DNA from: Candidatus Moranbacteria bacterium UBA2282
GTDB taxonomy: Bacteria > Patescibacteriota > Minisyncoccia > Moranbacterales > UBA2206
Direction of reading: 5' to 3'
Length of the DNA stretch: 64,000 nucleotides
NCBI GenBank assembly: GCA_002345745.1
Contig: DDWQ01000011.1
Location: forward strand, 85,995-149,994
The position numbers and the translations under genes are program-made. Position 1 is the first letter of the stretch. The number at the start of each line of letters is the position of its first letter. Shown piece by piece: positions 11,792 to 59,646 of the stretch. Under the pieces are notes generated by a model, which was given only the letters and a program-made list of their open reading frames with translations, was not told the DNA's origin and searched no databases.

Positions 11792-13444
11792 TTATTTTAA
11801 ATTACTATTTTTTAAAATATAAACGTCCACTGAGTCGAAATGTTCACCGGCAACTACTTGATAATCACGAATTGATTTTGAAAAGCCATCTGTTTTGTTT
11901 TTAATATAAACAAATTTTTGCCCCGATGGTATTTTTTCCTTTACTTTGGTAATATCAACTTCAGCAACCTCCAGTCCTTGTCGATAAAGCATATAGTCGA
12001 TGGACCCAAAATACCTATCCAAATACTTACCCTCCCCACTCATATAAATAATCTTTGAGCCAAGATTATTTTCTCCCAAAAAATCGACTACATTTTCCAC
12101 CCAACCTAAATTTGAATTATTAATATTGTTATCAAGTCCCTTCTTATAAAAATAATATTTTTTAATGTCAGTTTGCAATAAAACAATGGCCATAATTACT
12201 GCTAAAATTAGCGCTAATATCTTTCCATTTTTTCTAAATTTTTGCTGGAAAAATTGCAATAAGAAACCTAGGAATATAAACGGGATAAAAAATAAAATAT
12301 TAAAATAACTAACAGAAATAGAAGAAATGACGGGTATAAAGACTAGAAGACCAATCGCATTAAAAAGACCCGCAACTAACAAGAATGTTTTTCTATTTCT
12401 ATCTTTTTCTTTAAGAAAATTAATAACAAGAATTGCATAGCCCAAGACATAAAAGATAAAAATAGATACAAAAGTTGAAATATAGACGACTTTTCTTAAT
12501 GTGCGATTTTTAATTTCTCCATACAATTCTTTCGAGCCATTTTTAACATCAATACTCACGCCATCGTAACACTTATCCAAAACTGGAGCATATAGAATTA
12601 TATTTGCATTTGATTTTGCTTGACAAATAATAACTAACGCTGCATTTTTAACTAAATTATTTTCATTACCTCCTTTATCAATTGTTCCTAGTATAAAATT
12701 TCTTGTATTTTCTCCCCGGGTATTAATCTCACTGATAATTTGTGTAACATTTACAGTAACAGCAATTAGGATAATGATTATAAAATATTGCAAATATTGC
12801 ATCTTGCTTCTTTTGAAAATATACGCAGAAATGACCAATGTAAATATAGGCATAATAACCATTAAAGTTGTGTGCAATTGAACTCCGATTCCCAATGATA
12901 ATCCTACTAAAATTGACCACCACAGATAATTTCTATTTTTAAAATTAGTAATTTTAAAAATAGAAAGCAAAAACAATAAAACAAAAAATGGAGCCAAATT
13001 TGGATTTGATGAAAAACGAGATGCTTCAATAAAGAAATATGAAAAACTCATTACGCCTGTAATGCTCAGTGAGATATGTTTACTAAAATATTCTCTCAAA
13101 AACAAAAAGAGCAGTGGTATAGCTAAGATTGAAAATATAAGACTTGGGTATGCCATTTTGTCTGGATAATTGCCAAATATCTTCGCAGAAAGAAGCGAAA
13201 AATAATAATATGCTGGTCCAAGATGAAAACTTGTTCCGCCAGCTAACGGACCAAGCAATGGGATTGCTGTTTTCCCATCCAACACATCACTAATAATAAA
13301 TGCATCGCGTGATTGATCCATACTAAAGCGCAACCAATCATGAAAATGATAGGTACGCAGAAAAATACCAACTACTATTATCACCAAAAGAATCCAAATA
13401 TGGATTGGTATTTTTTTTATTTTATTTTGCAAATACTTTAACAT
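11792..13444 (-). CDS. GT-C fold membrane glycosyltransferase (ArnT/PMT-like), paralog 2
   Basis: RFSMDQSRDA...PLLGPLAGG N-terminal loop. Co-linear similarity to 9259..10854. Confidence 0.7.
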   Translation of the reverse strand: MLKYLQNKIKKIPIHIWILLVIIVVGIFLRTYHFHDWLRFSMDQSRDAFIISDVLDGKTAIPLLGPLAGGTSFHLGPAYYYFSLLSAKIFGNYPDKMAYPSLIFSILAIPLLFLFLREYFSKHISLSITGVMSFSYFFIEASRFSSNPNLAPFFVLLFLLSIFKITNFKNRNYLWWSILVGLSLGIGVQLHTTLMVIMPIFTLVISAYIFKRSKMQYLQYFIIIILIAVTVNVTQIISEINTRGENTRNFILGTIDKGGNENNLVKNAALVIICQAKSNANIILYAPVLDKCYDGVSIDVKNGSKELYGEIKNRTLRKVVYISTFVSIFIFYVLGYAILVINFLKEKDRNRKTFLLVAGLFNAIGLLVFIPVISSISVSYFNILFFIPFIFLGFLLQFFQQKFRKNGKILALILAVIMAIVLLQTDIKKYYFYKKGLDNNINNSNLGWVENVVDFLGENNLGSKIIYMSGEGKYLDRYFGSIDYMLYRQGLEVAEVDITKVKEKIPSGQKFVYIKNKTDGFSKSIRDYQVVAGEHFDSVDVYILKNSNLK

Positions 13445-26455: not shown

Positions 26456-26510
26456 CTTAGTCTACTTAGGACTCTACTTAGGACGGTCCTAAGTAGACCT
26501 AAGTAGATTA
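26456..26510. repeat. REP-A element (extended nested palindrome around the CTTAGGAC-G-GTCCTAAG core)
   Basis: tctacttaggactctacttaggac g gtcctaagtagacctaagtaga. Same core as the copies around RAYT-1. Confidence 0.7.
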
Positions 26511-26568
26511 GAAAAATTTTACGAAAACTGCTATACTTAATCTATATTAGATAAAAAACAAAAAAATA

Positions 26569-28023: not shown

Positions 28024-28040
28024 ATAAATAATTACGACCT

Positions 28041-28586
28041 ATGAGCAAATTCTCCAAAATCTCTCTCACAATTTTCATTTTTGTACTAGCAGGATTATTG
28101 ATTTATAGTTTTCTCATTTTCCGTGACCGTAATTCCGTGCCAAACAAGGATGATTCTCAACAATCAGCAGAGCAAGAACAAGAAAATGCTCCTTCAACAG
28201 ATTCATCAACTGATTCAGTCACAGATAATTCAAGCATAGATTCCGAAGACGCCGATAACACAGAGGGAGAGTCTGAAAGTGTCACATCTGAAAATACTGA
28301 TTATATCAATATTTCACGCTCTGATTGTGACAACAATTGCCAGGATTTCACTGACCCAGACGATCTCAAATATTGTCAACAAGTTTGCGGGCTGACGGAA
28401 ATCAAAAAGGACGTCACAGAAAAAACTGGTTGCGACGCCCTGCAAGATTTGGAAAAAGACTATTGTCTCAAAGATTTGGCGATTACCAAAAAAGATATCA
28501 GCCTTTGCGCAAAAATCAGCGACACCAATGTCCTCAAGACTTGCAAAAATCGCATCGCCCAAGACCTACTGGAATCACAAAATTAA
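28041..28586 (+). CDS. Small secreted/anchored protein with an acidic Ser/Asp-rich region and a Cys-rich C-terminal domain
   Basis: N-terminal TM/signal segment, a low-complexity S/D/E stretch, and 8 Cys in the C-terminal half. Confidence 0.4.
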   Translation: MSKFSKISLTIFIFVLAGLLIYSFLIFRDRNSVPNKDDSQQSAEQEQENAPSTDSSTDSVTDNSSIDSEDADNTEGESESVTSENTDYINISRSDCDNNCQDFTDPDDLKYCQQVCGLTEIKKDVTEKTGCDALQDLEKDYCLKDLAITKKDISLCAKISDTNVLKTCKNRIAQDLLESQN

Positions 28587-28596
28587 ATAATAGATT

Positions 28597-28620
28597 TACT
28601 TAGGACGGTCCTGGGGAATA
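28597..28620. repeat. REP-A copy
   Basis: acttaggacggtcctggggaata. Confidence 0.65.
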
Positions 28621-28743
28621 TAACCGATTAGAAATCGCATATTTAGACTCAAACATAATACTTTAAGTTATATTCTATAGTCTTATTATAGACGATTGAT
28701 AGACGATTGTCAACCTCACTAGCCTACTGGCGGTTACGCATTT

Positions 28744-28785
28744 CATTGGCAGGTGAGTATTCACCAGTCAATACTCACCCCCAAT
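28744..28785. other. Nested stem-loop (CATTGG..GGTGAGTATT..AATACTCACC..CCAATG); possible terminator or small structured RNA
   Basis: 10-bp inner arms plus 6-bp outer arms; lies between convergent genes. Confidence 0.3.
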
Positions 28786-28832
28786 GCGAGTGAAATATTT
28801 TCAGGCTCCAATTTTTAAAAAATTTATAATGT

Positions 28833-29825
28833 CTACACTTCACTAATTACATCAAATCCCTTGAAGCTTCCGGTAATTGAGAGTCCAATAACCTTTTTTG
28901 CAATTCCCTTTTGCTTGATTTGCAAAGCAGTTTCATTGAGCGTCGCCCCTGACCCAACAGCATCATCAATCAACAGAACATTATCAAATACTCCACGCTC
29001 ATCCACAATAATCGTATTTCTGGCATTCTCAATACGATCACTCAATTTAGTGAGGGTTTTTTGCGGAACAATAATCTCAGTCTTGATTTTGACAATAGAA
29101 ACTCTGCGAACATGCTCATGTAGATTCTTTTCCAATTCTTTCATAAGTTGCACTTCACGTTTCACTGTCGGTGGAATAAATCCAATTCCATCAATTTTAT
29201 ATCTTACAATGAGTTCATCGATTCTTGATTTGACGTCACTTGTCAATTCACGCATCAATTTTTTATCCTGACTCTGTTTGGCATACAAAAGCAATTGTCC
29301 AAGTTTTGTTTTGCCGAATCTTTCAATACTATAAAAATCCAAATAAAAAACCTTATCCAGTCCAACTTTTTCAAATGTAGCTTTGAACTTTTCAATCCCA
29401 TCAATGACACTATTTTTCTTGAATGCATTATATTTTTCTAGAGTTTTGACATATTCAACGGCAGTTTTCTCAACTGACTGATTTGTTCTCCCGCACCAAT
29501 ATTCAAAACCATCCACTCCTTGCTTGCGTTCTCCTGAAGGCGAAATAAAAAGAAAATTTTCTTCTATAATTTTTTTAATATTATCACCAATAATAAAAGG
29601 ACTTTTTTTTGCAAAAAACTCGTCACTAATCATATAAAAAACCTTTGGTGACTTACCAATCTTACTCAGTGTGTTATCAGCAATCAAATTAGCCAACTGT
29701 TTGAAAACAGCTCTTTCGCTAATTAACAAATAATCAACAAGTTCACTAGCCGTTACTTGTTTTTTTGCCTGTATATATTCAACAATTTTTTCTGCAGTAG
29801 TTTTTTTCATAAGTTCATAGTTCAT
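28833..29825 (-). CDS. Winged-helix plus phosphoribosyltransferase (PRTase, type I)-domain protein
   Basis: C-terminal NVLLIDDAVGSGATL PRPP-binding motif. The N-terminal roughly 60 aa are wHTH-like. Confidence 0.6.
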   Translation of the reverse strand: MNYELMKKTTAEKIVEYIQAKKQVTASELVDYLLISERAVFKQLANLIADNTLSKIGKSPKVFYMISDEFFAKKSPFIIGDNIKKIIEENFLFISPSGERKQGVDGFEYWCGRTNQSVEKTAVEYVKTLEKYNAFKKNSVIDGIEKFKATFEKVGLDKVFYLDFYSIERFGKTKLGQLLLYAKQSQDKKLMRELTSDVKSRIDELIVRYKIDGIGFIPPTVKREVQLMKELEKNLHEHVRRVSIVKIKTEIIVPQKTLTKLSDRIENARNTIIVDERGVFDNVLLIDDAVGSGATLNETALQIKQKGIAKKVIGLSITGSFKGFDVISEV

Positions 29826-30010
29826 ACTTAACTATGAACCAATATAACATATTTATATCTTTTGTCAATACCTCAATTTTATGGCTTAATACAGCCCACT
29901 TTACCCAAGCCATCTTTTCCAAAATGGCTGGCGCAGAAAGGCAGGAGAGAAAAATTCGTCGTGGGTGAGATACTAACTTAGGCAAACTTAGGACGGTCCT
30001 AAGGAATATC
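29822..30010. repeat. Copy A of a roughly 185-bp repeated element ending in REP-A
   Basis: Near-identical to 30987..31175. Contains the GCCATcttttccaaaATGGC hairpin and ends gtgggtgagatactaacttaggcaaacttaggacggtcctaagg. Confidence 0.7.
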
Positions 30011-30060
30011 GTGGATGAGATACTAACTTAGGCGAACTTAGGACGGTCCTAAGGAATATT
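29961..30060. repeat. 50-bp tandem duplication carrying two REP-A cores
   Basis: The unit gtggDtgagatactaacttaggcRaacttaggacggtcctaaggaatat occurs twice. Confidence 0.7.
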
Positions 30061-30065
30061 ATCTT

Positions 30066-30285
30066 GCAGTTGTCAATACCTGAATTTTATGGCTTAAAAT
30101 TAGGATTTTTCTGCTCTTTTCACTGAGGACGATCCTAGAGAATAGCGACGCTTATCCAAGCCATCTTTTCCAAAATGGCTGGTGCAGAAAAGCAGGGGAG
30201 AAAAATTCATCGTGGGTGAGATACTAACTTAGGCAAACTTACTTAGGACTACGAACTTAGGACGGTCCTAAGTAAACTAAGTAAA
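30066..30285. repeat. Diverged copy B of the 185-bp element plus an extended REP-A
   Basis: Shares ttgtcaatacctSaattttatggcttaa and ccaagccatcttttccaaaatggctgg...gtgggtgagatactaacttaggcaaactta with copies A and C. Ends in acttaggactacgaacttaggacggtcctaagtaaactaagtaa. Confidence 0.6.
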
Positions 30286-30286
30286 T

Positions 30287-30916
30287 CTAATCTTCCAAAT
30301 AAAACTTGCTCATTTCTTTTCGCTCTTTCATGCCAACGACTTTTTCCATACAGAAAACACTGTAATCTTCCGCATTTTTGAATTGTCCAAGCACTTCATC
30401 TTTTTGACATCCAATCCCCGATTTTCCCATATATTCTGAGAAACTGCACCATGGATATTTTTCAGCTTTTTCAATGCCATGAATTTGACTATTGCAATTC
30501 ACATACGCCGACATATACAAAAGTAAATCATTTGAATTTATGTGCACAGACTTGAATCTTCCCTGAAATAAAACTCCTGATCGATTATATCTTTTGTTAA
30601 AATACATAGCATAGCCAGTGCCAATCTTTTTCATAAACATCGCAATACCGTTTTCTTTATTCTCTCTTAGAATGAGATGGAAATGATTTTGATTTAAGCA
30701 ATATGACACCACATCAACCAATCTTTCTTCTGGTCTTGGACGAACCTTATCCTCATCTCTCATTTGAATTGGATTTTCAGTATTAAAAAATATCAAAGAC
30801 CTAAGCAGACGGGTATAATCCGTATTCCGCTTGAATATTTGTCTTTTTTCTACTCCACGATTGAAGATATGATAATATTCGCCAATCGTGAAAAATTCTC
30901 TTCGTTGCATAAACAA
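30287..30916 (-). CDS. REP-associated tyrosine transposase (RAYT; IS200/IS605 TnpA-like HuH Y1 enzyme), copy 1
   Basis: EYYHIFNRG, the HuH motif NHFHLIL, and GRFKSVHINSNDLLLYMSAYVNCN (catalytic Tyr region). REP-A palindromes flank it on both sides. Confidence 0.75.
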   Translation of the reverse strand: MFMQRREFFTIGEYYHIFNRGVEKRQIFKRNTDYTRLLRSLIFFNTENPIQMRDEDKVRPRPEERLVDVVSYCLNQNHFHLILRENKENGIAMFMKKIGTGYAMYFNKRYNRSGVLFQGRFKSVHINSNDLLLYMSAYVNCNSQIHGIEKAEKYPWCSFSEYMGKSGIGCQKDEVLGQFKNAEDYSVFCMEKVVGMKERKEMSKFYLED

Positions 30917-30961
30917 ATTCTAGCACAAAGCGCCTTCTATACCTAGACTTACTTAGGCAAA

Positions 30962-30979
30962 CTTAGGACGGTCCTAGGG
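30962..30979. repeat. REP-A copy (upstream of RAYT-1)
   Basis: cttaggacggtcctaggg. Confidence 0.7.
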
Positions 30980-30986
30980 AATATAG

Positions 30987-31175
30987 TTCATACTTAACTA
31001 TGAACCAATATAACATATTTATATCTTTTGTCAATACCTCAATTTTATGGCTTAATACAGCCCACTTTACCCAAGCCATCTTTTCCAAAATGGCTGGCGC
31101 AGAAAGGCAGGAGAGAAAAATTCGTCGTGGGTGAGATACTAACTTAGGCAAACTTAGGACGGTCCTAGGGAATAG
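30987..31175. repeat. Copy C of the 185-bp element ending in REP-A
   Basis: Near-identical to 29822..30010. Confidence 0.7.
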
Positions 31176-31627
31176 TGGTAACAGTTTCGGCAAGGTTTCA
31201 TAAAAAGTTTGTCGACGATGATTGATACCAAAATATTCTTTGAGCAATTCAATTGATTGTAATTTTGATGCTGGCTGGATAATTCGCATAATTACCAAAT
31301 CATGCAAGAGTGTATTGCCAACAGCGGTAAATTTAAAACGATCAAGTAGTTTGATTAAAATTTCATAGATAAAATTGTAACGAAATCCGATGTATTCACA
31401 TTTATCCAAAATGGCAAAGCTGTGTTGTTCCTCAACTTTATCAAACAAGCTCTGTTGCTTGGTTGTTTTTTAACCCAAGCCCCGGCAATTTTTAGAAGTG
31501 CATCAATTTCTTCATTTGTGCGACCACTGCCAATATGCTTGGACAGTGTCATTTTGCGTTCAAGGTAACTTACAACTTGCACAGCTGTTGCTCCGGAAGC
31601 AGTTTTAGTTTTACGAATATGATACAT
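31176..31627 (-). pseudogene. IS1634/IS4-superfamily transposase remnant (N-terminal part, frameshifted and truncated by the 185-bp element)
   Basis: ORF 31355..31627 begins MYHIRKTKTASGATAVQVVSYLERK..HIGSG, as IS1634 transposases do. It continues in another frame (31176..31448); the C-terminal part of that frame is a translated repeat. Confidence 0.5.
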
Positions 31628-31785
31628 GGCAGTACATTACTACCCTTAGTATGACAAAAAACTCTTTTTTTCACAAATTATCCTTTAGTTTAGCTGAAAT
31701 ATTTTTTTGGAAAAATGAGGCGGACAAGTCGGGACCATGGATATTCGGCAATCCAGCCAATATTTTTCAAACTAAAAAACTTCTG

Positions 31786-31801
31786 CCGAGGACGGTCCTA
31801 G
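31786..31801. repeat. Degenerate REP-A copy
   Basis: gaggacggtcctaggg. Confidence 0.5.
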
Positions 31802-31813
31802 GGAATGTTAACT

Positions 31814-31894
31814 TTATCTTGCAATGTTTTTATCAAATCCACGATTAAAAATGTGATAATATTCGCCAATCGCGAAAAATTCTCTTCGTTGCAT
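31814..31894 (-). pseudogene. Duplicated 5' fragment of the RAYT-1 gene (26 codons then a stop)
   Basis: 31836..31963 duplicates 30858..30985. It encodes MQRREFFAIGEYYHIFNRGFDKNIAR*. Confidence 0.6.
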
Positions 31895-31932
31895 AAACAA
31901 ATTCTAGCACAAAGCGCCTTCTATACCTAGAC

Positions 31933-32412
31933 TTACTTAGGCAAACTTAGGACGGTCCTAGGGAATAAAGCGATATTTCCATAGGTTCTAAAAAAGGAAT
32001 ATCCGTACAATTTAGAATTTTTCATAAATCGAGATCCAAGAATGGCTGCTAGTTCATCATTTCGCTCAATTTCACTGATAAAATTGTTAATTTCCTGTGT
32101 TTTTGCCTGATCATCGCCATGCAAAATGATCACATAATCCATTCCATTTTCAAAGCCAAAATTGAAGGCAACCTTGTGAGATCCTCCTAAACCATAATTA
32201 TTATCATTTCTAAAGACATTAAATTTATCATGGCCAATTGTTTTTGTTTTTATCGCATTAATTGCTGAATTTATAGTATCATCCTTGCTTTGATTATCTA
32301 TGATAATCACTTTCTCAATCTTATCCAATAGATTTTCATCAAAACCAGCAATTACCCGCTTTATTTGGATTTCACAATTATAACAAGGAATCGCCACTAA
32401 TATTTTTGACAT
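31933..32412 (-). pseudogene. GT2 glycosyltransferase truncated after about 150 aa by the REP/RAYT-fragment insertion
   Basis: The N-terminus ILVAIPCYNCE...IIIDNQSKDDT...HGDD is a GT2 A-domain. The last 10 codons (FPRTVLSLPK) are a translated REP-A. There are no C-terminal TM helices. Confidence 0.5.
31946..31963. repeat. REP-A copy
   Basis: cttaggacggtcctaggg. Confidence 0.7.
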
Positions 32413-38259: not shown

Positions 38260-39315
38260 TTAACCAAAATAATTCTTAATCTGTTTATATTTTTTATATA
38301 AAAAATTTGGAATTTTCCAACGCAGAGAATTGACGACGGAGGACAATTGTTTTTCTTTTTGAATAATTTCATCTTTTAGATGTTGTACTTTTTCTTCCCC
38401 AGCCTCTATTTCTCGCTCATTAGCTTGTGTTTTTTGCTTTTCATTCAATACCTCTTTAGTTTTTATTTCAATACTAATTTTATTTTCTATATTTATTTTA
38501 TTCATCATATCCATCGCATTTTTTATCGTTTTCAAGAAAAGATTATCATCAATCAAGCTTTTAGCTATTTCTAAATCCTTTAATTCATTGCTTTTCTTAA
38601 TAAAATATATTTTTCTATAAGATGGGTCTTGATTATCAAAAGGAAAAACCTCTGTATTATAAAAATAATTAAATTTCTGGTGATTACTATGGAGTTCATC
38701 TGACATATTTTCTTCAATCAAAAATTCCATCCCTAATAATAATTGCCACAAAAACAATCTGTTATTTTGTAGCTTCTGAAATGATACTGCCTTTTCTTCT
38801 AACAAATTTTCAAATTCAATCATTTCTGGCAAACCATTTTCTATATGCTCCTTGAGCCAAATATGATCCTCTCCATTATGTAGCATTTTATAATTTTCAT
38901 TTGCATTTATTTCTGCTTGCGCAACCGCTGGAGAGTAGAAAGGTGCCACTAGGACAACTCCTAATTTTGCAACTCGCAAGTTTTCCTCTAAAAAATTTTT
39001 TCTTTTTTCTTTTGGTATATGTTCAAAAACATCAGTAGAAACAACCCAGTCAAAACTTTCATCAACCAATGGCATATTGCAGCCATCCCCCTTGATAAAA
39101 TTTTCGTCCTCAGAATCAAGAAACGGATCGAGATAAAAGACATCATCCTCTGGAAAAAATTTTTTCATCCAGTTACCCCTACCACCCACATCAAGAATTT
39201 TTAATTTTTCATTACCTTTGCGATTTTTTTCTACAATATTCTGAATAGGTGCAAATCGTCCATACAAATGGAAAACCATTTCTTTTTTAAATTGTTCTTC
39301 TGCTATTTTTTCCAT
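38260..39315 (-). CDS. Class I SAM-dependent methyltransferase with a C-terminal coiled-coil region
   Basis: LDVGGRGNWM (motif I), DESFDWVVSTDVFEHIP, LRVAKLGVVLV. The C-terminal roughly 80 aa are K/E-rich and predicted helical. Confidence 0.7.
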   Translation of the reverse strand: MEKIAEEQFKKEMVFHLYGRFAPIQNIVEKNRKGNEKLKILDVGGRGNWMKKFFPEDDVFYLDPFLDSEDENFIKGDGCNMPLVDESFDWVVSTDVFEHIPKEKRKNFLEENLRVAKLGVVLVAPFYSPAVAQAEINANENYKMLHNGEDHIWLKEHIENGLPEMIEFENLLEEKAVSFQKLQNNRLFLWQLLLGMEFLIEENMSDELHSNHQKFNYFYNTEVFPFDNQDPSYRKIYFIKKSNELKDLEIAKSLIDDNLFLKTIKNAMDMMNKINIENKISIEIKTKEVLNEKQKTQANEREIEAGEEKVQHLKDEIIQKEKQLSSVVNSLRWKIPNFLYKKYKQIKNYFG

Positions 39316-40601
39316 AATGTTTCTATTTTTATTAATCCATTTTGGTTCTCTTCTTGAGAAATTATTTTAAATCCATAAAACCTATCCTTAAAATCAATTG
39401 GAGTTACACAATCCCAATTAAATAATGCTGCGGTAAATCTATAACTACCCGTGAAAAATTTATTTTCAATAATTACAAAATCAAAAGAGCCAAGACCTTC
39501 GATATAATCTATTATAAATTTAGAAGTTTTTGTATTTGGACCGGAAATATGAATTCCGTCTTGTGTATAAATAGCAACACCGAAGACAGGTTTTTCTATT
39601 TTCTTTTTTGCATTGTAATATATCCGCGCTACAATATCATCCCCTGTCTCAAAAACATTCTTTGCTTTCCCGTCCTTATCCAAAAATTCAACCTTAGTTA
39701 TTTCTATGACTTTACTTTTTCTTTCTTCGCTATCTTCTTTATTGATATTTTTTTTACCATCTTCTTCCTTTTTTTGCTCATCATACATCCTCTTTTCCTC
39801 ATCCGACATATTCTGATAGACATATTCATTGCCAACTTCTTCCGCTTTGCCAATTTTAACAATTTTTCCATTACGAAGCAACATTGCCCGATCGCAATAT
39901 CTTTGCACTACGGCGATATCATGAGTGACAATTATTACTGTTCTCCCCATACCTCGATATCTATTAAATTCTTCCAGACATTTCGATTGAAAATTTGAAT
40001 CTCCCACCGCCAAAACCTCATCCATAAGTAGTATATCACGATTAGCGTGAATGGACACCGAAAAAGCCAACCTCACCTGCATGCCGGAAGAATAGTTTTT
40101 CAATTTTTGGTCAATGAAGCGTTCCAGTTCAGAAAATTTCACAATGGAATCGAATTTCTTGTCGATTTGCTTTTTGGTCATCCCCAGCACTGTGGCGTTC
40201 AAATAGACATTATCCCGTCCGGAAAGCTCGGGATTGAAACCGATGCCCAACTCCAAAAAGGGTGAAATCATGCCATCAATCTTTACCCCGTGAAATTCCG
40301 CCTTAGGCGGACGGGCTCCGCCCGATTTCACTGGGGTGCCTTTCTTGGGTTTATCCGCCTGATAAATCCCCGCCAAAACCTTCAACAGCGTCGATTTTCC
40401 GCTGCCATTCCGACCAATGATGCCAAAAAATTCGCCCTTTTTCACCTCAAAAGAAACATCGTCTAATGCTTTGAATTCTTCGTAACCCCTCTTTTTACTA
40501 AAAACCGAAATAGCAGCTCCTCTTAGCGAGGAGATTTTTTCATGTGGTATTTTAAACGTCTTACTGACGTTTTTTACACTAATTGCGATGTCTTTATCCA
40601 T
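39303..40601 (-). CDS. wzt: ABC transporter ATP-binding protein of Wzt type, with a C-terminal carbohydrate-binding domain
   Basis: Walker A GRNGSGKST, signature SSGMQ, Walker B LLMDEVLAVGD. A roughly 170-aa C-terminal beta-rich extension. A roughly 20-aa GC-rich insertion lies after Walker A. Confidence 0.8.
   Translation of the reverse strand: MDKDIAISVKNVSKTFKIPHEKISSLRGAAISVFSKKRGYEEFKALDDVSFEVKKGEFFGIIGRNGSGKSTLLKVLAGIYQADKPKKGTPVKSGGARPPKAEFHGVKIDGMISPFLELGIGFNPELSGRDNVYLNATVLGMTKKQIDKKFDSIVKFSELERFIDQKLKNYSSGMQVRLAFSVSIHANRDILLMDEVLAVGDSNFQSKCLEEFNRYRGMGRTVIIVTHDIAVVQRYCDRAMLLRNGKIVKIGKAEEVGNEYVYQNMSDEEKRMYDEQKKEEDGKKNINKEDSEERKSKVIEITKVEFLDKDGKAKNVFETGDDIVARIYYNAKKKIEKPVFGVAIYTQDGIHISGPNTKTSKFIIDYIEGLGSFDFVIIENKFFTGSYRFTAALFNWDCVTPIDFKDRFYGFKIISQEENQNGLIKIETLWKK
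40287..40336. repeat. GC-rich nested-hairpin element inserted in frame in the wzt ATPase domain
   Basis: ccccgtgaaat tccgcc tta ggcgga cgggc tcc gcccg atttcactgggg. It encodes the extra KPKKGTPVKSGGARPPKAEF segment. Confidence 0.55.
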
Positions 40602-41321: not shown

Positions 41322-42662
41322 CTATTTTTTAATAATTTTCCAATATCCTCCCTTGTCGGGACCAACCCTTTTTAGCAAATCTTTTTCCTTTAATTTTGAG
41401 ATATCTCTTTTAATAGTTTTTTCATTAACACCTGCCTTTTTGGCTATTTCTGGAATTGTAATTCTATTATTATTTCTAATAATTTCCACAACAATATCTT
41501 CTCGATTTTCAGGGACATTTTCAGGGACATTTTCAGGGACATTTTCTAATGCCATTCTTTTGAAAATTATAGAGAACCAATTCTCGTTGGTTTCAATTTT
41601 TGGATTTGGAAGACCATATTCTTTCATGGCTTTTTTCATCCGCAGAATTCCAGACCCTATTTTCTCCACCAAATCCATTCTCTGCATCAAGCCAAATAGA
41701 AGATTATTTCTGGACAAACTTCTTTTACCCAATTCTTTTATCGTCATTCCCCGCACTAGCCCTCCGGGATTAGTTATTTCAACTCGATCAGAAAAAATAT
41801 AAATCTGAATATTCGCACCTGTCACGAAATAGTTTCTGTGCGCAATTGCATTCAGGATTGCTTCGCGCAATGCGTCTTCTGGTAGTTCTAATTTTTCTTC
41901 TCGCGGTCCACCTTTTATGATAAATTCTGTGTTCAACTTTGAACGCAGATAATCCATGGCATTCTCATAATTGCTAAATAGGTCAGCATCAAATTCTTTT
42001 CGGTCCAATATTCTGTATTTTGTCCTTCCATAAAAAAGCACGCATGTAATCGTTGACTGCAAAAGAAACTTTGTAATATCATTGGAAAAAAGAAGTACAC
42101 CGGCATTTTTCATTTTATCATCAGAGACCAAATTAAGATTTGTCAAAATGTCGCGTGTTGGCAAAATTTTTCTTATATGAGATAGTCGTAAAAAGTTATT
42201 AAAAGATTTTTTATTTAAATCCTTTTTGATATCAAATTTTTCATTAACCCTCTCATCAAAAAGAACCAGGCCTTCTTTTTGAAAAAAATATTTGATTTCA
42301 TTTCTCGTAAGTTGCTGACTATTGGCTCCTTGGCGCAAGTAAAATTTTCCCACAATTGAATATGGTTTTTCTTTGCCCTCTGGGACATCAACAATCAAAA
42401 TACCCTCAATTTCTTGCAAATGTATGGTCATTTTCGGATCAAGATTTCTGCCAATAACCTGAATTTCTGATTTTAATTTGTTGGTAATTTTGATTTCTTT
42501 TTTTATTCCGGAATCAGTAATTCCAATAAATATCTTTCCCCCAGAAGCATTGGCAAAAGCACACATTTCTTTTCCAATTGTGGAACTATGCGACTCTTTA
42601 AATTCAATATTATAGCCTTCTCCTTGGCTGATATAAAATTCTAATTCTTTTTTCATTAACAT
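41322..42662 (-). CDS. AlbA_2 (Schlafen-like) plus HATPase_c_4 (RecG-C-like) plus wHTH putative ATP-dependent DNA-binding regulator
   Basis: N-terminal YNIEFKES...CAFANASGG (AlbA_2/divergent AAA). The C-terminal wHTH is RITIPEIAKKAGVNEKTIKRDISKLKE. It contains an ENVPENVPENVPEN repeat. Confidence 0.6.
   Translation of the reverse strand: MLMKKELEFYISQGEGYNIEFKESHSSTIGKEMCAFANASGGKIFIGITDSGIKKEIKITNKLKSEIQVIGRNLDPKMTIHLQEIEGILIVDVPEGKEKPYSIVGKFYLRQGANSQQLTRNEIKYFFQKEGLVLFDERVNEKFDIKKDLNKKSFNNFLRLSHIRKILPTRDILTNLNLVSDDKMKNAGVLLFSNDITKFLLQSTITCVLFYGRTKYRILDRKEFDADLFSNYENAMDYLRSKLNTEFIIKGGPREEKLELPEDALREAILNAIAHRNYFVTGANIQIYIFSDRVEITNPGGLVRGMTIKELGKRSLSRNNLLFGLMQRMDLVEKIGSGILRMKKAMKEYGLPNPKIETNENWFSIIFKRMALENVPENVPENVPENREDIVVEIIRNNNRITIPEIAKKAGVNEKTIKRDISKLKEKDLLKRVGPDKGGYWKIIKK
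41507..41546. repeat. 12-bp tandem repeat (3 units) inside a CDS, encoding (VPEN)n
   Basis: agggacattttc repeated three times. Confidence 0.8.
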
Positions 42663-48097: not shown

Positions 48098-48187
48098 ATT
48101 TTTTTATTTTAATTTAATTACATTTTTATTATACTCCATCCCTCAAAAATACAAAACGCTTAAACACGCTTTGCCACACATATATTC

Positions 48188-48208
48188 TGTAGGGGTTTCA
48201 CCCCTACA
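48188..48208. repeat. REP-B copy (TGTAGGGGT-TTC-ACCCCTACA), immediately 3' of RAYT-2
   Basis: 9-bp perfect arms with a 3-nt loop. Confidence 0.75.
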
Positions 48209-48210
48209 GA

Positions 48211-48849
48211 TTATTCTTCCAGCAAATATCTTCTCATTTCATTTCTGCGTTGATTTATTTCCTTCGCATTTACATCAACAAATTTACCATAATCACTTTT
48301 ATTCTTAAACTGATTTAGAATTATTTCTGGATTGCATAACTTTTCAACATCATCACCCAAATAGCTTTTCAAACTTGACCTAAATTCTTTTACATCATGA
48401 ATAACATTATTACCATTCACATAAGCTGACAGATGCAATAAATATTCATTACTATTTATATGTATAGCCTTAAATCTTCCTTGAAATAATGAACCATTTC
48501 TTTTATTTCTATGATTAAAATATCCTGTATATCCACCGCCTATGCGTTTCATAAATTCCGATATACCACCATCACTCAACTGCTTTAGTATAAAATGAAA
48601 ATGATTTGGAAGCAGATTGTAGACAATTATTTCCACTAACGCACCATTCTGTAGGGGTTTCACCCCTACATCATTTACTTTACTTTTTATATATAAACTA
48701 ATGATGGGTTCGATTTCATTAAATTCTTTCATTGATTTAAGAAACCTGGCATAATCATATTTATCCAAAAAAATATCTCGCTTCTCCACTCCACGATTAA
48801 ACACGTGATAATATTCGCCATTTACAAATTCAAAAGAAAAGTTTCCCAT
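48211..48849 (-). CDS. REP-associated tyrosine transposase (RAYT), copy 2
   Basis: EYYHVFNRG, PNHFHFILK (HuH), GRFKAIHINSNEYLLHLSAYVNGN. Flanked by REP-B copies, and contains one REP-B in frame. Confidence 0.75.
   Translation of the reverse strand: MGNFSFEFVNGEYYHVFNRGVEKRDIFLDKYDYARFLKSMKEFNEIEPIISLYIKSKVNDVGVKPLQNGALVEIIVYNLLPNHFHFILKQLSDGGISEFMKRIGGGYTGYFNHRNKRNGSLFQGRFKAIHINSNEYLLHLSAYVNGNNVIHDVKEFRSSLKSYLGDDVEKLCNPEIILNQFKNKSDYGKFVDVNAKEINQRRNEMRRYLLEE
48650..48670. repeat. REP-B copy inside the RAYT-2 coding sequence, in frame
   Basis: tgtaggggtttcacccctaca encodes ...VGVKPLQNG... within the protein. Confidence 0.75.
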
Positions 48850-48874
48850 CTTTTTTGTTTTAGTTTTTTATATC

Positions 48875-48895
48875 TGTAGGGGTGAAACCCCTACA
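48875..48895. repeat. REP-B copy (inverted-loop orientation), 5' of RAYT-2
   Basis: tgtaggggtgaaacccctaca. Confidence 0.75.
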
Positions 48896-50107: not shown

Positions 50108-50139
50108 TTTTTTATTGCTATTTAATAAATTAGTAATTT

Positions 50140-50160
50140 TGTAGGGGTGAAACCCCTACA
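50140..50160. repeat. REP-B copy
   Basis: tgtaggggtgaaacccctaca. Confidence 0.75.
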
Positions 50161-50181
50161 AAATTATTTCTTGCTTCGATC

Positions 50182-51368: not shown

Positions 51369-51410
51369 TCTTTTGACTTTATGAACTTTATGGGCTTGAT
51401 GGACTTTCTA
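51369..51410. repeat. 9-bp periodic array (GACTTT-type units)
   Basis: cttttgact ttatgaact ttatgggct tgatggact ttc. Confidence 0.55.
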
Positions 51411-52364
51411 ATAATTTTGTTTATTTTTCTGATACCACTCTACAAAATTCTTCATCCCATCTTCAATTTTGGTTTTAGGATTATAGTCCAGCATTTTTCT
51501 AGCTTTTGTAATGTCGGCATAAGTTATTGGAACATCACCAGAAAACATTGGGTATTCTTTGATGTTGGCTTTTTTGCCAAGACATTTTTCCACCACTGCG
51601 ATGAAGCTATTGAGATCAATCGTATCAGAATTTCCGAGATTAAAAATTTCATAACCAAAAATTCGATCAATAGCAGAAATGACGCCGTCCACAATATCAT
51701 CAATATAGGTATAGTCACGTCTGGTTGAGCCGTCGCCAAATCTTTTCACTTCTGTGCCTTCGTCAATCCACTTGGTGCACAAAAACGGAAACATATCTGG
51801 TCGTCCACCTGGTCCATAGACAGTGAATGGTCGCACGATGTTGACATTCAATTTGTGCAGATAGTGATAGGCGTGCGCCATCAGTTCGGTGGCTTTTTTG
51901 GTCGCTGCATAGGGTGAGATGGGAAAATCAACATTATCAGTTTCGGAAAATGGAACTTTTTTGTTTTCACCATAGACTGAAGATGAACTGGTCAAGACGA
52001 AATTTTCAATCCCGAAGTCTTTTGATAAATCTAGCAAATTCAATGTGCCGATATAGTTGGTGTCGGCATAGATGAATGGATCAGCAATGCTAGGTCGCAC
52101 ACCAGCACGTGCGGCTGGATGAAAAACACGCTCAAACTTTTCCATCGCAAAAATATTTTTCATAAAGTCATAGTCAGCAATGTCGCCACGATATAATTTG
52201 TAATTTGGATTTTGTGCAAATTGTGCCACGTTTGCCTCCTTCACTTTCGGCGAATAATAATCATTGAAACTATCCACGCAAACCACGCTATCGCCTCTTT
52301 CTAATAATTTTTTGGTAACAGCTGACCCAATGAAACCTGCTCCTCCTGTGACTAATATTTTCAT
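51408..52364 (-). CDS. NAD-dependent UDP-glucuronate 4-epimerase-like SDR (epimerase/dehydratase family)
   Basis: MKILVTGGAGFIGS and the YAATKKATELMAHAYHYL (YxxxK) motif. Strong co-linearity with Cap1J/LpsL-type UDP-GlcA 4-epimerases. Confidence 0.8.
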   Translation of the reverse strand: MKILVTGGAGFIGSAVTKKLLERGDSVVCVDSFNDYYSPKVKEANVAQFAQNPNYKLYRGDIADYDFMKNIFAMEKFERVFHPAARAGVRPSIADPFIYADTNYIGTLNLLDLSKDFGIENFVLTSSSSVYGENKKVPFSETDNVDFPISPYAATKKATELMAHAYHYLHKLNVNIVRPFTVYGPGGRPDMFPFLCTKWIDEGTEVKRFGDGSTRRDYTYIDDIVDGVISAIDRIFGYEIFNLGNSDTIDLNSFIAVVEKCLGKKANIKEYPMFSGDVPITYADITKARKMLDYNPKTKIEDGMKNFVEWYQKNKQNY

Positions 52365-54951: not shown

Positions 54952-56772
54952 ATGAAACTACAAATACCAGAGATAACTTTAAATAGATACCAACTATTCA
55001 CAATCTTTGCCCTGTTTTGGATAGGATTGGGATGGCTTGGTTTGGCATTGTCTCTTTTGGGTATTTTTTATAATATCTTTCTTGTCAGTTATATAGTCCT
55101 TGGTGTAATAACGTTGGTATATTTAATCAATTTCAATAAAACCAAAATTGAAATTAATCCGCGTTTCTTTTTGATGTTATTTCTCACCCTGACAGCAATT
55201 TTTATTTTTTCCACCTACACCACACCTAGCATCTTTTCTGGACGGGACCAAGGATCACTCAGTGAAGCAGCAATTCGATTGTCACAAAACCATCACATTT
55301 CTTTTTCTTCTCCCGTTTCAGAAGAATTTTTCAAAATTTATGGTCCTGGCAAAGCCTTAAATTTTCCTGGCTTCAACTATACGGCATCCGGAAATATGTC
55401 AACCCAATTTCCACTCGGCTATATTTCTTGGCTGGCGATTTTTTATTCTTTATTTGGACTAAATGGTTTTATTGTTGCCAATAGCATTACGTTTTTCATA
55501 TTTATTTTTTCTTTTTATTTAGTTACTAGATATTATCTGCGAGCTTCTTCCGCAATTGCCGCGGTTGCTCTAGTGTTGACTTCCTTTGTTTTTTCTTGGT
55601 TTTTCAAATTCACCCTCAGTGAAAATCTCGCGTTGATGCTAACTTGGTTTGGAATTTATGAATTCGTACTCTTCACTAAAAATAGATCGCGTTTTTATTT
55701 ACTTTCCTCTCTCACAGCTTTTCTATTGCTGTTTTTTACCCGTGTAGAAGCACTCGGATTTCTAGCGATTATTTTTGCGATGCTTATTATCAAATACAAA
55801 GATTGGAAATATCTCCTGTTTGTTGTTATTGGGAAAAAAGCACTGTTATTTATTGGCTGTTTTCTTTTACTGCATATTTTTCATTTAACAATCGATAGTC
55901 CATCATATTTCTCAATGTTGAAAAGCATCCTCAGTCCATTTATCTCCCTTGGTTCCGGACTTAAGGATTATTCACAAACTGATTCCGTACCATTTCTAGC
56001 AACGTCTTTCTATGTGCTTAAAGTTTTTTCTGTCTACGCTCTTTTCAATTTCCTTCTTTTCGGTTTCATTGGTTTTGTCTATTTATGGAAACACAAAAAA
56101 TTTGAAATTCTTGTTCCGTTTCTGATTGTCTTGCCAACCCTTGTTTATCTTGTTCATCCTAGTATTTCCGCCGATCATCCCTGGATGTTGCGCCGTTTTG
56201 TTTTTTCGATTATTCCCATCAGCATTCTCTATAGTATTTGGTTTTTCGATTCCTGCCTGCCGGCAGGCAGAGGTTTTTTCAAAAGAATTTATTTTTACAT
56301 TGCTATCTCCATGCTACTTGTTACCAATCTAATTGTTTCCGTGCCATTTCTGACAGTTTCACCTGACAAAAATCTGCTGCCGCAAATCAAAGCCATCAGT
56401 GGAAATTTCCAAGACTCCGATTTGATTCTGGTGGATCGCGATGCTACGGGAGATGGCTGGTCGATGATGACCGGTCCGATGAATTTTCTATTTAACAAAC
56501 AGGCAGTGTATTTTTTTAATCCGAAAGATCTAGCTCAAATTGACCGCAACAAATTCAGCGCGATTTATTTCATTATTCCCGATACTAAACTAGATTTTTA
56601 TCGCTCCAACGGAATTCTTGAAAAACTGGCTCCTATCAAAAATTACTCTATTGCTACAGAAATTTTAGCTATAAAAACCGGAGAAAAACAAGAAATGTTT
56701 ACCGCTCCAATTGAATTGCCTTCTGTGCAAGACGTCACAATTTATGGTAAAATTTATTTATTAACCGATTAG
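54952..56772 (+). CDS. Polytopic membrane protein; possibly a GT-C-type glycosyltransferase
   Basis: 606 aa with at least 13 TM helices. The first extracytoplasmic loop is FSGRDQGSLSEAAIRL (DE-x-x-x-A-like). Confidence 0.45.
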   Translation: MKLQIPEITLNRYQLFTIFALFWIGLGWLGLALSLLGIFYNIFLVSYIVLGVITLVYLINFNKTKIEINPRFFLMLFLTLTAIFIFSTYTTPSIFSGRDQGSLSEAAIRLSQNHHISFSSPVSEEFFKIYGPGKALNFPGFNYTASGNMSTQFPLGYISWLAIFYSLFGLNGFIVANSITFFIFIFSFYLVTRYYLRASSAIAAVALVLTSFVFSWFFKFTLSENLALMLTWFGIYEFVLFTKNRSRFYLLSSLTAFLLLFFTRVEALGFLAIIFAMLIIKYKDWKYLLFVVIGKKALLFIGCFLLLHIFHLTIDSPSYFSMLKSILSPFISLGSGLKDYSQTDSVPFLATSFYVLKVFSVYALFNFLLFGFIGFVYLWKHKKFEILVPFLIVLPTLVYLVHPSISADHPWMLRRFVFSIIPISILYSIWFFDSCLPAGRGFFKRIYFYIAISMLLVTNLIVSVPFLTVSPDKNLLPQIKAISGNFQDSDLILVDRDATGDGWSMMTGPMNFLFNKQAVYFFNPKDLAQIDRNKFSAIYFIIPDTKLDFYRSNGILEKLAPIKNYSIATEILAIKTGEKQEMFTAPIELPSVQDVTIYGKIYLLTD

Positions 56773-58491: not shown

Positions 58492-59646
58492 CTAGTTCTT
58501 CAAATATTCCAGAGTCTCTTGCGCGCATTTTTCCCAAGAGAATTCTTTTAATTGCTCACGCCCTTTTGCAATCAACTCAATTTGCAGATCTTTAGAAATC
58601 AAAACTTGTTCTATTTGTGTACTGAGTTGTGCTGTATTCTGTGCATCAAAATATAGTGCACCTTCTCCACCAATTTCTCGCAAAGAAGAATTATCCGCTG
58701 TTATCAAAGGCACACCAGCGGCATATGCCTCTAGGATTGTGATGCCAAAGCCCTCATAAAGTGAAGGATAGACAAATACACTAGCCCCCCGAAACAAACA
58801 CCCTACATCGCAAAATTTGAGCCTGCCAGGCATTATGATGTCTTTAGAATAGACGCTATTTCTAGCCTTTTTTTCTATAGATTCCGCGAGCCATGCCTTT
58901 TCTCCCGCTAAAACCAATTTGAGAGCGCAAAAGGAGCTAAGCTCCCAAGCTTGGGAGCTTAGCTCCTTTTGCTTCCGGCTTTTTAATAAGTCAAATGCCT
59001 CAATCAATTTTTCAATATTTTTTCTCGGCTGTAACGCACCAGAATACAAAATATACTCTCCTACTATTCCAAGTTTATTTTTCAATTCTTGCTCTTTGCC
59101 ATGATCACGTGCTTGAGAAAAAACATCTGGACTAAAGCCATGATAGATGACCTGGATTTTATTGGCGTCAATTTCCGGATAAAATTTTATGATGTCATGC
59201 TTGGTCGCCTGTGAAATGGCAATAATTTTGTCTGCCTGCCTAATTGAGTAGTCCGCAAATAAATTTAGTTTGCGTAAATCTTTTGGAGGAAAATATTGTG
59301 GAAAATATTTAAAAGCCAAGTCATGAATAGTCACCACTGTTTTCAAATTTTTTCGACGTAGATATGGCAGAGCCGCCATCGGCATCCACAAAACAGTTGG
59401 TTTTTCTTTCCACACTTCCCATGCAAATCTAATTTGCGTCCACAGGATTGGAAAAGACTTTTGAATAATTTTATAATTTGAAAATTCCGGCGGAGTGAGT
59501 TCCGGATTAAATTTACTTTTGTGATAAATTAAAAACTCGCTCTGTAAATCTAGCTTGCCAAAGTGTTTTAGCAAGTTAAAAATATAGACGCGAGTTCCAT
59601 CAATGCGCTCGTGATCAAGGTCAGCTGCAGAAATTGCAATTTTCAT
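58492..59646 (-). CDS. GT4-family glycosyltransferase carrying an in-frame 46-bp perfect palindrome at the inter-domain linker
   Basis: YPSLYEGFGITILEAYAAGVPLITAD motif. Inserted peptide KELSSQAWELSSF. Confidence 0.8.
   Translation of the reverse strand: MKIAISAADLDHERIDGTRVYIFNLLKHFGKLDLQSEFLIYHKSKFNPELTPPEFSNYKIIQKSFPILWTQIRFAWEVWKEKPTVLWMPMAALPYLRRKNLKTVVTIHDLAFKYFPQYFPPKDLRKLNLFADYSIRQADKIIAISQATKHDIIKFYPEIDANKIQVIYHGFSPDVFSQARDHGKEQELKNKLGIVGEYILYSGALQPRKNIEKLIEAFDLLKSRKQKELSSQAWELSSFCALKLVLAGEKAWLAESIEKKARNSVYSKDIIMPGRLKFCDVGCLFRGASVFVYPSLYEGFGITILEAYAAGVPLITADNSSLREIGGEGALYFDAQNTAQLSTQIEQVLISKDLQIELIAKGREQLKEFSWEKCAQETLEYLKN
58927..58972. repeat. Perfect 46-bp palindrome inside the GT4 CDS
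   Basis: GCAAAAGGAGCTAAGCTCCCAAG|CTTGGGAGCTTAGCTCCTTTTGC. Confidence 0.9.

Follow-up and report, generated by a model that had tools for sequence, protein, structure and literature searches.

Repetitive extragenic palindromes (REPs) and the REP-associated tyrosine transposases (RAYTs), for which Nunvar 2010 is reportedly a source, form the described systems that come closest to the element considered here, a perfect 46-bp palindrome situated in frame in the gene of a family 4 glycosyltransferase (GT4) of Candidatus Moranbacteria bacterium UBA2282. The gene lies in a stretch of 64,000 nucleotides (contig DDWQ01000011.1 of assembly GCA_002345745.1, positions 85,995 to 149,994 of the forward strand), hereafter called the window, whose coordinates are used throughout unless another locus is named. 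REPINs are composed of two inverted REPs and are mobilised by RAYTs (Bertels & Rainey 2011, PMC3116915, PMC3337134), and intragenic REP dimers encoding 20-30 amino acids (aa), as well as REPtrons, have been described in other phyla (Di Nocera 2013, PMC3733652). As in these systems, the family to which we assign the palindrome consists of a short hairpin unit that occurs both as singletons and as head-to-head doublets folding into one long hairpin; its hairpins flank Y1/HUH transposase genes of related genomes in the REPtron arrangement; several REP families occur per genome, each with its own RAYT, two of them in the window; and intragenic dimers encoding a peptide insert have precedent. The family differs from them in having no conserved GTAG/CGTC tag, in a unit of only 13 bp with a 1-3 nt loop, in doublets that are usually perfect palindromes with an 8-bp spacer and not one of 20-100 bp, in its low copy number, in associated proteins that score under the NCBIfam RAYT cut-off, and in being ~41% intragenic, whereas REPs are extragenic by definition.

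Rickettsia palindromic elements (RPEs), reportedly described by Ogata et al. in 2000, are likewise palindromic repeats lying in frame in functional genes, including housekeeping genes, at positions tolerated by the fold and in host-dependent bacteria with small genomes; they differ from the present family in sequence and in phylum, and in that a RAYT-like gene is associated with the family of the Candidate Phyla Radiation (CPR). RPE-1 is about 100-150 bp long, and we know of no dedicated transposase for the RPE/CGTC repeats. RPE-4 and RPE-6 have been equated with CGTC REPs (PMC3733652), and RPEs are treated here as a likely analogue of the GT4 palindrome, not as its family. IS200/IS605 insertion sequences and their non-autonomous hairpin derivatives (2VJV, 2XM3) share with the CPR family the Y1 HUH fold of the enzyme, the recognition of subterminal DNA hairpins and a single-stranded chemistry that leaves no target-site duplication; they possess distinct left and right ends round a gene and insert beside a specific tetra- or pentanucleotide, whereas a hairpin doublet alone makes up the CPR unit. 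Quasipalindrome template-switch mutagenesis, the mutations of which extend the arm identity of quasipalindromes (PMC7202029, PMC3820800), extends or restores arm complementarity, as is seen in the locus-specific arms and paired substitutions of the present family; it is a mutational process and not an element, and it is invoked here only for the arms and the symmetry. No paper linking REPINs or RAYTs with CPR bacteria (Patescibacteria) was found in the literature searched.

In this paper, we report that hairpin doublets of the kind found in the GT4 gene form a dispersed family, that ~40% of the copies lie in frame in genes, and that RAYT-like genes are flanked by or contain the same hairpin. 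We consider it probable, at roughly 0.75, that the palindrome is a REP doublet (REPIN-like) made of two GGAGCT-N-AGCTCC hairpins set head to head round an 8-bp spacer, that a RAYT-like Y1 (HUH) transposase is the cognate enzyme of the family, and that the core was mobilised, the occupied site transferred as a recombination patch, and the arms shaped by template switching. In such a course of events, the 34-bp core would have been mobilised in trans as single-stranded hairpin DNA by a RAYT-like transposase, as its association with such genes suggests, and would have landed in a permissive alpha-to-beta surface connection of GT4. The copy in the window would have come by homologous recombination of a patch of ~100 nt from a related Moranbacteria GT4 allele and not by local transposition, while quasipalindrome template-switch correction during replication would have produced the outer 6-bp arms, made the symmetry perfect and caused the paired substitution of an ortholog. 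We infer that none of this implies a function of the palindrome for the host.

The palindrome and its host gene

The sequence-only reading of the window had described a flawless 46-bp palindrome centred on AAGCTT, and exactly this is present at 58927-58972, where GCAAAAGGAGCTAAGCTCCCAAG|CTTGGGAGCTTAGCTCCTTTTGC forms a 23+23 bp palindrome whose arms are 100% complementary and adjoin without a spacer. No perfect palindrome of the 64-kb window is longer, the runner-up being AT-rich with 18-bp arms. The claim that such a palindrome is very improbable is borne out as well, since 6.7e-9 of them are expected in 64 kb at this base composition; shuffles of the window gave no match to the half-site. Each arm contains a nested 13-bp palindrome, GGAGCT(A/T)AGCTCC, and the whole element, which encodes QKELSSQAWELSSFC on the minus strand, is thus ordered as a left outer arm GCAAAA (58927-58932, complementary to 58967-58972), a left REP hairpin unit GGAGCTAAGCTCC with A at its centre (58933-58945), a spacer CAAGCTTG that holds the AAGCTT (58946-58953), a right REP hairpin unit GGAGCTTAGCTCC with T at its centre (58954-58966), and a right outer arm TTTTGC (58967-58972; the pairing statistics of such arms across doublets are given below). 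The 34-bp core GGAGCTAAGCTCC-CAAGCTTG-GGAGCTTAGCTCC (58933-58966), consisting of a 13-mer, an 8-bp palindromic spacer and a second 13-mer, is the likely mobile unit, and its architecture recurs in at least 118 loci elsewhere.

The 46-bp palindrome is predicted to fold into a 21-bp stem with a 4-nt loop, with a free energy of -25.3 kcal/mol as single-stranded DNA (z -8.4), and the RNA fold in a 106-nt context reaches -48.6 kcal/mol (z -5.95). Only one of its three reading frames is stop-free, the other two meeting a TAG or TAA stop in the middle of the 13-mers, and this holds on either strand because the sequence is palindromic. The insert may therefore have survived in GT4 because it fell in the only stop-free frame, ELSSxxxELSS. 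No direct repeats flank the palindrome (CGGAA | GCTCT), and there is no direct target-site duplication round the 46-mer or round the 34-bp core. Furthermore, 2155 bp including the palindrome are found with zero mismatches in two other JGI metagenome samples, and the palindrome is therefore not an assembly artefact. As the palindrome is identical on both strands, the peptide QKELSSQAWELSSFC also opens an antisense open reading frame (ORF) of 61 aa at 58919-59104 (+), by which gene callers can be misled.

The palindrome lies in frame in the ORF 58492..59646 (minus strand), which encodes a GT4 protein of 384 aa with the Pfam domains Glyco_transf_4 at residues 16-174 and Glycos_transf_1 at residues 189-364; the encoded stretch is Q226-K-E-L-S-S-Q-A-W-E-L-S-S-F-C240, with the insert proper at E228-C240. 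The best homologs of the protein are GT4 enzymes of Moranbacteria and other Patescibacteria, and the lengths of the best 120 orthologs are mostly 370-372 aa. An in-frame insertion had been proposed, with an alignment to orthologs as its check, and in an alignment of 24 sequences most orthologs do show a 13-residue gap at the site, including the closest one, P0002 (83% identical), which reads ...DDYKTRSKSK-IKLV... where the window reads ...DLLKSRKQK[ELSSQAWELSSFC]ALKLV.... The GT4 copy is thus an insertion relative to most orthologs. The location that had been suggested, the linker between the two domains, has to be revised: according to both Pfam and the AlphaFold2 model (mean pLDDT 93), the site is within the C-terminal domain. 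In the model, the insert lies between helix 211-228 and strand 243-247, the first helix and the second strand of the C-terminal Rossmann domain, where the chain makes its first alpha-to-beta connection. In Rossmann folds such connections are generally on the side opposite the substrate cleft, and it is plausible from the model that the insert sits in a tolerated surface connection of the enzyme.

A dispersed family of hairpin doublets and its RAYT-like genes

One genome per GTDB species was scanned for two exact 13-mers 0-30 nt apart, so that all counts are lower bounds. The scan of these species representatives gave at least 118 stretches, compared with ~0.1 estimated by chance. Among the matches listed (118 loci), to which the following figures refer, 65 belong to named CPR lineages and 24 to unclassified metagenome-assembled genomes (MAGs) of 40% GC, and the remaining loci to a few 'Gammaproteobacteria' MAGs, one Thermoanaerobaculia genome and others; the lineages are mostly Moran-, Falkow-, Uhr-, Nomura-, Parcu-, Gribaldo-, Nealson- and Saccharibacteria. 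In the Thermoanaerobaculia copies, the hairpin lies within classical GTAG-tagged REPINs. The motif pairs are predominantly of the inverted type (111/130), and their spacer, usually palindromic itself, has a modal length of 8 nt (53/130), GAAGCTTC, GAAGCGTC, TGTATACA and CAGTACTG being alternatives to the spacer of the window copy. The centre bases of the paired 13-mers covary across the family (A..T, T..A, C..G, G..C), and the inner tetranucleotide is CTTG in the window copy and CTTC, CGTC, TACA or ACTG in other copies. Some of the copies outside ORFs have A-runs and T-runs that resemble bidirectional terminators.

Within ORFs of at least 150 codons lie 46 of the 111 inverted doublets (~41%), and the intragenic doublets with an 8-nt spacer always read ELSSxxxELSS. 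Their hosts in other CPR genomes include ValRS, LeuRS, ArgRS, GatA, HemK and proteins resembling IleRS and DnaG. LeuRS, ValRS and GatA contain the peptide KELSSEASELSS, and the ArgRS of MAG CAIMIV01 contains KELSSQAWELSS. An alignment of the LeuRS copy with Thermus thermophilus LeuRS (2V0C) leaves a 15-residue gap at ELSSEASELSSKNDS, and the alignments of ArgRS with PDB entries fall outside the insert region. The sequence-only reading had placed the GT4 palindrome in an RPE-like family of small elements inserted in frame into genes, with wzt and rmlD of the window as further cases. What stands of this is that small palindromes of one family lie in frame in unrelated genes (LeuRS, ValRS, ArgRS, GatA, HemK) of other CPR genomes; this is not so in the window, where neither wzt (39303..40601) nor the RmlD-like ORF (51408..52364) contains a palindrome with arms of 8 bp or more, and where the proposed search for further copies of the 46-mer or its half-site found none. 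The evidence for the family therefore comes from other genomes.

Among the retrieved loci, MAG CAIMIV01 has at least four doublets and two singles, and MAG ELA282 at least seven doublets. The CAIMIV01 copies are found in GT4 (L027), in ArgRS (L111; the same CAAGCTTG core with arms GAAAAA/TTTTTC), in a membrane protein (L098) and at locus L061. Viral contigs searched for the motif pair yielded none; the match listed for the 20-mer core AGCTCCCAAGCTTGGGAGCT among metagenome contigs, L124, is unrelated; and a text search of the literature did not find the 13-mer, shorter strings matching primers. In MAG ELA282, the doublet is in addition embedded in a repeat of >200 bp, ...GGTGGTAGTGATTCGGGCTAAGCCAATATGCGATAATTTCATTCGATGGTTGCG... 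followed by a C/T-rich tract (L054, L060, L064, L067, L119), which is present on at least five contigs, overlaps RAYT gene fragments and looks like a proliferating or decaying REPtron.

The link with RAYT-like genes is most direct at L061, which comes from the same MAG, CAIMIV01, as the GT4 copy L027. It encodes a 223-aa Y1_Tnp protein (PF01797, 32 bits vs a cut-off of 23), the best NCBIfam match of which is REP_Tyr_transpos, below the cut-off of the model; single 13-mers are located 6 bp past the stop and 13 bp ahead of the start of its gene, and a doublet lies in frame inside. RAYT homologs flanked by or containing the hairpin were also found by tblastn at L006 (two genes), L023, L032, L047, L049, L064 and L121, with doublets on both sides of the gene at L121, and both on either side and inside it at L064. 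At L061, L064, L121, L006, L023 and L047 the hairpins are within 6-70 bp of the gene ends. The associated proteins score 29-32 bits against PF01797 (cut-off 23), and their HUH motif NH(F/Y)H and catalytic Tyr are invariant; the RAYT-like family comprises 5751 proteins in CPR at E ≤ 1e-10, some of which are named RayT by IMG. Sequence comparison of the L061 protein with the PDB gave nothing by phmmer and E 0.13 to ISDra2 TnpA by profile. Since the same hairpins flank and sit inside RAYT-like genes, we take the element to be a REP doublet of a RAYT-associated family and not a local accident.

The window itself encodes two RAYT homologs, both of which carry hairpins other than the GGAGCT type. 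The first, at 48211..48849 (minus, 212 aa, PF01797), has a family of its own, GTAGGGGT-N3-ACCCCTAC, with four copies: GTAG-tagged hairpins TGTAGGGGT-N3-ACCCCTACA flank the gene (48186-48210, 48875-48895), the third copy is inside it at 48650-48670, in frame, where it encodes VGVKPLQ in a disordered loop, and the fourth follows an ABC-2 permease gene at 50134-50166. Positions 48186-48895 together with 50134-50166 constitute a REPtron. The top PDB match by Foldseek of the AlphaFold2 model of this protein (pLDDT 84) is 4ER8 (E 2.6e-6), in which the RAYT of E. coli is in complex with a REP hairpin, followed by the TnpA proteins of IS608 and ISDra2. Round the second homolog, 30287..30916 (minus; 43% identical to the L061 RAYT), cluster the eight copies of another REP family, ACTTAGGACGGTCCTAAG(T/G), at 26476, 28598, 29986, 30036, 30255, 30961, 31152 and 31945 (window 26476-31963).

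Many RAYT-like genes of the clade contain an in-frame REP hairpin or doublet (L061 5988-6021, L064 7206-7239, L049 2891-2924, L032 5281-5312, window 48650-48670), and its position is always one and the same variable loop, which separates the FN(D/N) motif from the HUH strand. The internal hairpin matches the REP family at or next to the gene in five cases; at P0185/L127 it differs from the downstream hairpin, and a rule that the internal hairpin of a RAYT equals the flanking REP was dropped because it fails there. The internal hairpins may reflect cis-recognition, autoregulation or a preferred landing site.

Outer arms, a probable recombination tract and further palindromes

The peptide encoded by the palindrome is identical in the orthologs P0003 (74% identical) and P0023 (67%), which are the only two palindrome carriers among the best 120 GT4 orthologs. 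The same peptide in non-palindromic codons would have spoken against a palindromic element; the codons of both orthologs are palindromic. In the DNA of P0023 (L001) the perfect 46-bp palindrome is retained by two matching substitutions, A→C (CTA→CTC) in one arm and T→G (CTT→CTG) in its partner, with the 25-nt flanks differing from those in the window at 5/25 positions on each side (20%). At the site, P0006 (L002) has a lone 13-mer (KQKELSS|LKLV), single or decayed copies are found in P0031 and P0033, and P0113 (L003) has two 13-mers 20 nt apart, giving 16-bp arms. In the ortholog tree the carriers are scattered, and P0002, the sister of the window gene, is without the element.

Nucleotide identity between the window and L027, the gene of P0003 in MAG CAIMIV01, is 0.60-0.78 along the gene and rises to 0.95-1.0 around the palindrome. 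The near-identical tract of ~99 nt spans 58910-59008 (minus), with 1 mismatch in 99 nt as against 35/143 (24.5%) in the adjoining sequence (P ~3e-11 for this excess of identity, and 6e-6 when only the 53 flank nt are counted). Judged from this pattern, the tract probably marks a short patch of recombination by which the element passed from one GT4 allele to another, and it is in this way that the window copy probably arrived; such a patch would explain why the flanking residues LLKSRKQ accompany the element.

The outer arms behave differently from the core. Within one genome the core is constant and the arms vary from 0 to 15 bp, and in a set of 107 distinct doublets the Watson-Crick pairing beyond the core falls from 84% at position 1 through 76, 57, 57, 52, 53 and 42% at positions 2-7 to a background of ~27%; there is no base preference at positions 3-7. 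In HemK (L012, L058) the palindrome reaches 64 bp with 15-bp arms, while the gap relative to Thermotoga HemK (1SG9) is only 11 residues, since AKKLK and FNFFA, encoded by the arms, align to native residues. Arms of this kind thus give the impression that the flanks became symmetrical secondarily; L012 and L058 differ from each other by two paired arm changes. Read together, these sequences suggest that hairpin-templated mutation produced the arms, kept the symmetry perfect and introduced the substitutions in pairs.

Several other palindromes and genes of the window may be mentioned. At 56253-56270, a perfect 18-bp palindrome CTGCCTGCCGGCAGGCAG, with 78% GC in a genome of 35% GC, lies in frame in the ORF 54952..56772 of a 606-aa membrane protein and encodes CLPAGRG; the identical 18-mer occurs in the Falkowbacteria locus L025 at 7873-7890, 48 bp from a GGAGCT doublet, and is probably another shared palindromic element. 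At 12930-12966, an AT-rich perfect palindrome with 18-bp arms, TTTCTATTTTTAAAATTA-G-TAATTTTAAAAATAGAAA, lies within the ORF 11792..13444 (minus) of a PMT_2-family glycosyltransferase. An ORF with Schlafen AlbA_2, HATPase_c_4 and HTH domains is located at 41322-42662 (minus), between the wzt region and the polysaccharide genes.

Alternative explanations and implications

A hairpin selected for a function in GT4, be it a translation-pausing mRNA structure, an RNase III site, a terminator (internal or antisense) or a site of protein binding, would account for the very stable fold and for a paired substitution that keeps the structure while the flanks diverge, and the core is bordered by A4/T4, many intergenic members having terminator-like A- and T-runs. 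We nevertheless hold it to be unlikely, because most orthologs lack the palindrome (just 2 of the best 120 carry it, and the closest is without) and the identical core recurs in unrelated genes, as well as beside transposase genes. A terminator scan gave only a weak half-site match, on the antisense strand; some intergenic members do fit an intrinsic terminator, the GT4 palindrome does not, being mid-gene with only four T past the core. The G·T enrichment expected of RNA stems is absent from the arm mismatches, and no Rfam family matches at the gathering score, a permissive threshold bringing up only sub-threshold hairpin look-alikes (sau-5971, miRNA precursors). Mobility by other means than a RAYT, i.e. 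a MITE (miniature inverted-repeat transposable element) or an element dependent on a DDE transposase, on a homing endonuclease or on a site-specific recombinase, seems to us more improbable still. It is suggested by the occupation of the same site in scattered GT4 lineages, by a short co-converted tract that resembles homing, and by the missing GTAG tag. MITEs, however, have terminal inverted repeats, a direct target-site duplication and a length of 70-300 bp, and the present element has no such duplication and, at 34-46 bp, is far under their size; no endonuclease is associated with it, its sole recurrent neighbour being the Y1 transposase; and the shared tract is best read as allelic recombination, because the ArgRS copy and the GT4 copy of one genome have unrelated flanks.

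An origin without any mobile element, by de novo local inverted duplication through a template switch at a small pre-existing palindrome, could draw on L002, where P0006 has only one 13-mer at the site, on the locus-specific and complementary outer arms, and on the HemK arms at native residues. Direct-repeat collapse of a doublet accounts equally well for the single 13-mer of L002, as periods of 21 and 33 nt preserve the frame, and the same 34-bp core, spacer included, stands at >100 loci in many genomes and genes, against ~0.1 expected; template switching thus probably accounts for the arms only and not for the core. We give this explanation as a whole very little credence, and a purely local origin of the core appears effectively refuted by the sequences compared. 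That the palindrome arose in sequencing or assembly, as a fold-back chimera, an adaptor or a linker, has a negligible probability in our judgement. A fold-back can indeed create perfect palindromes, an inverted repeat of >140 bp runs to the end of the retrieved locus L024, and CCCAAGCTTGGG is a classic HindIII linker; but both flanks continue the reading frame of a conserved enzyme, the palindrome is identical in three independent assemblies of the organism and present in the orthologs of two other species, and the members of the family stem from many projects and assemblers. At L024 (JABMPZ010000111.1, 7848-7881) itself, complementarity extends for at least 54 bp on each side and reaches the end of the retrieved locus; the locus may be a fold-back misassembly nucleated by the palindrome, and such elements may corrupt de Bruijn assemblies. 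An uptake-signal sequence was rejected, single 13-mers being rare (13 isolated ones in 826 kb), as was a parvovirus-like flip/flop, a perfect palindrome being invariant under inversion.

Several observations weigh against a RAYT-mobilised REP doublet. To our knowledge, RAYT-mediated transposition has no in vivo demonstration even for classical REPINs. The RAYT-like proteins reach 31 bits against REP_Tyr_transpos of NCBIfam, the cut-off of which is 80, and the 64-kb window contains no RAYT flanked by GGAGCT hairpins, nor a second copy of the 46-mer, of its half-site (≤3 mismatches) or of the 13-mer (≤1 mismatch). Copy number per genome is low, with up to 7 doublets among the retrieved loci, classical REPs being present in hundreds of copies. 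The ends of the family have no conserved GTAG or CGTC tag, as the inner tetranucleotide varies and the outer flanks are tagless (Thermoanaerobaculia excepted). The invariance of the 13-mer is partly a matter of construction, because the search pattern demanded exact 13-mers, and the case for a template-switch origin of the arms comes from two genes.

A wider reading, in which these results are taken jointly, is that CPR bacteria carry a distinct and undescribed REP/RAYT system with three unusual properties, which spreads between species through short-patch recombination of occupied alleles; we put it forward tentatively and regard it as somewhat doubtful. The untagged 34-bp doublet may be tolerated in frame in essential genes at high frequency; it may 'grow' by hairpin-templated conversion of its flanks, rewriting codons as in the AKKLK/FNFFA residues of HemK; and the transposase gene itself may hold the cognate hairpin in frame in a conserved disordered loop, which hints at cis-recognition or autoregulation.

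The findings provide evidence for REP/RAYT-type hairpin elements across the Candidate Phyla Radiation. In very small genomes, their insertion adds peptides to core enzymes, aminoacyl-tRNA synthetases among them, which affects gene calling and protein alignments in CPR bacteria, and assembly is affected as well, since a perfect palindrome can make a de Bruijn graph fold back on itself. The family also bears on the persistence of selfish DNA in streamlined genomes and, with its low copy number, perfect symmetry and locus-specific arms, it offers a clean natural system for the origin of REP doublets and for the hairpin-templated remodelling of coding sequence.

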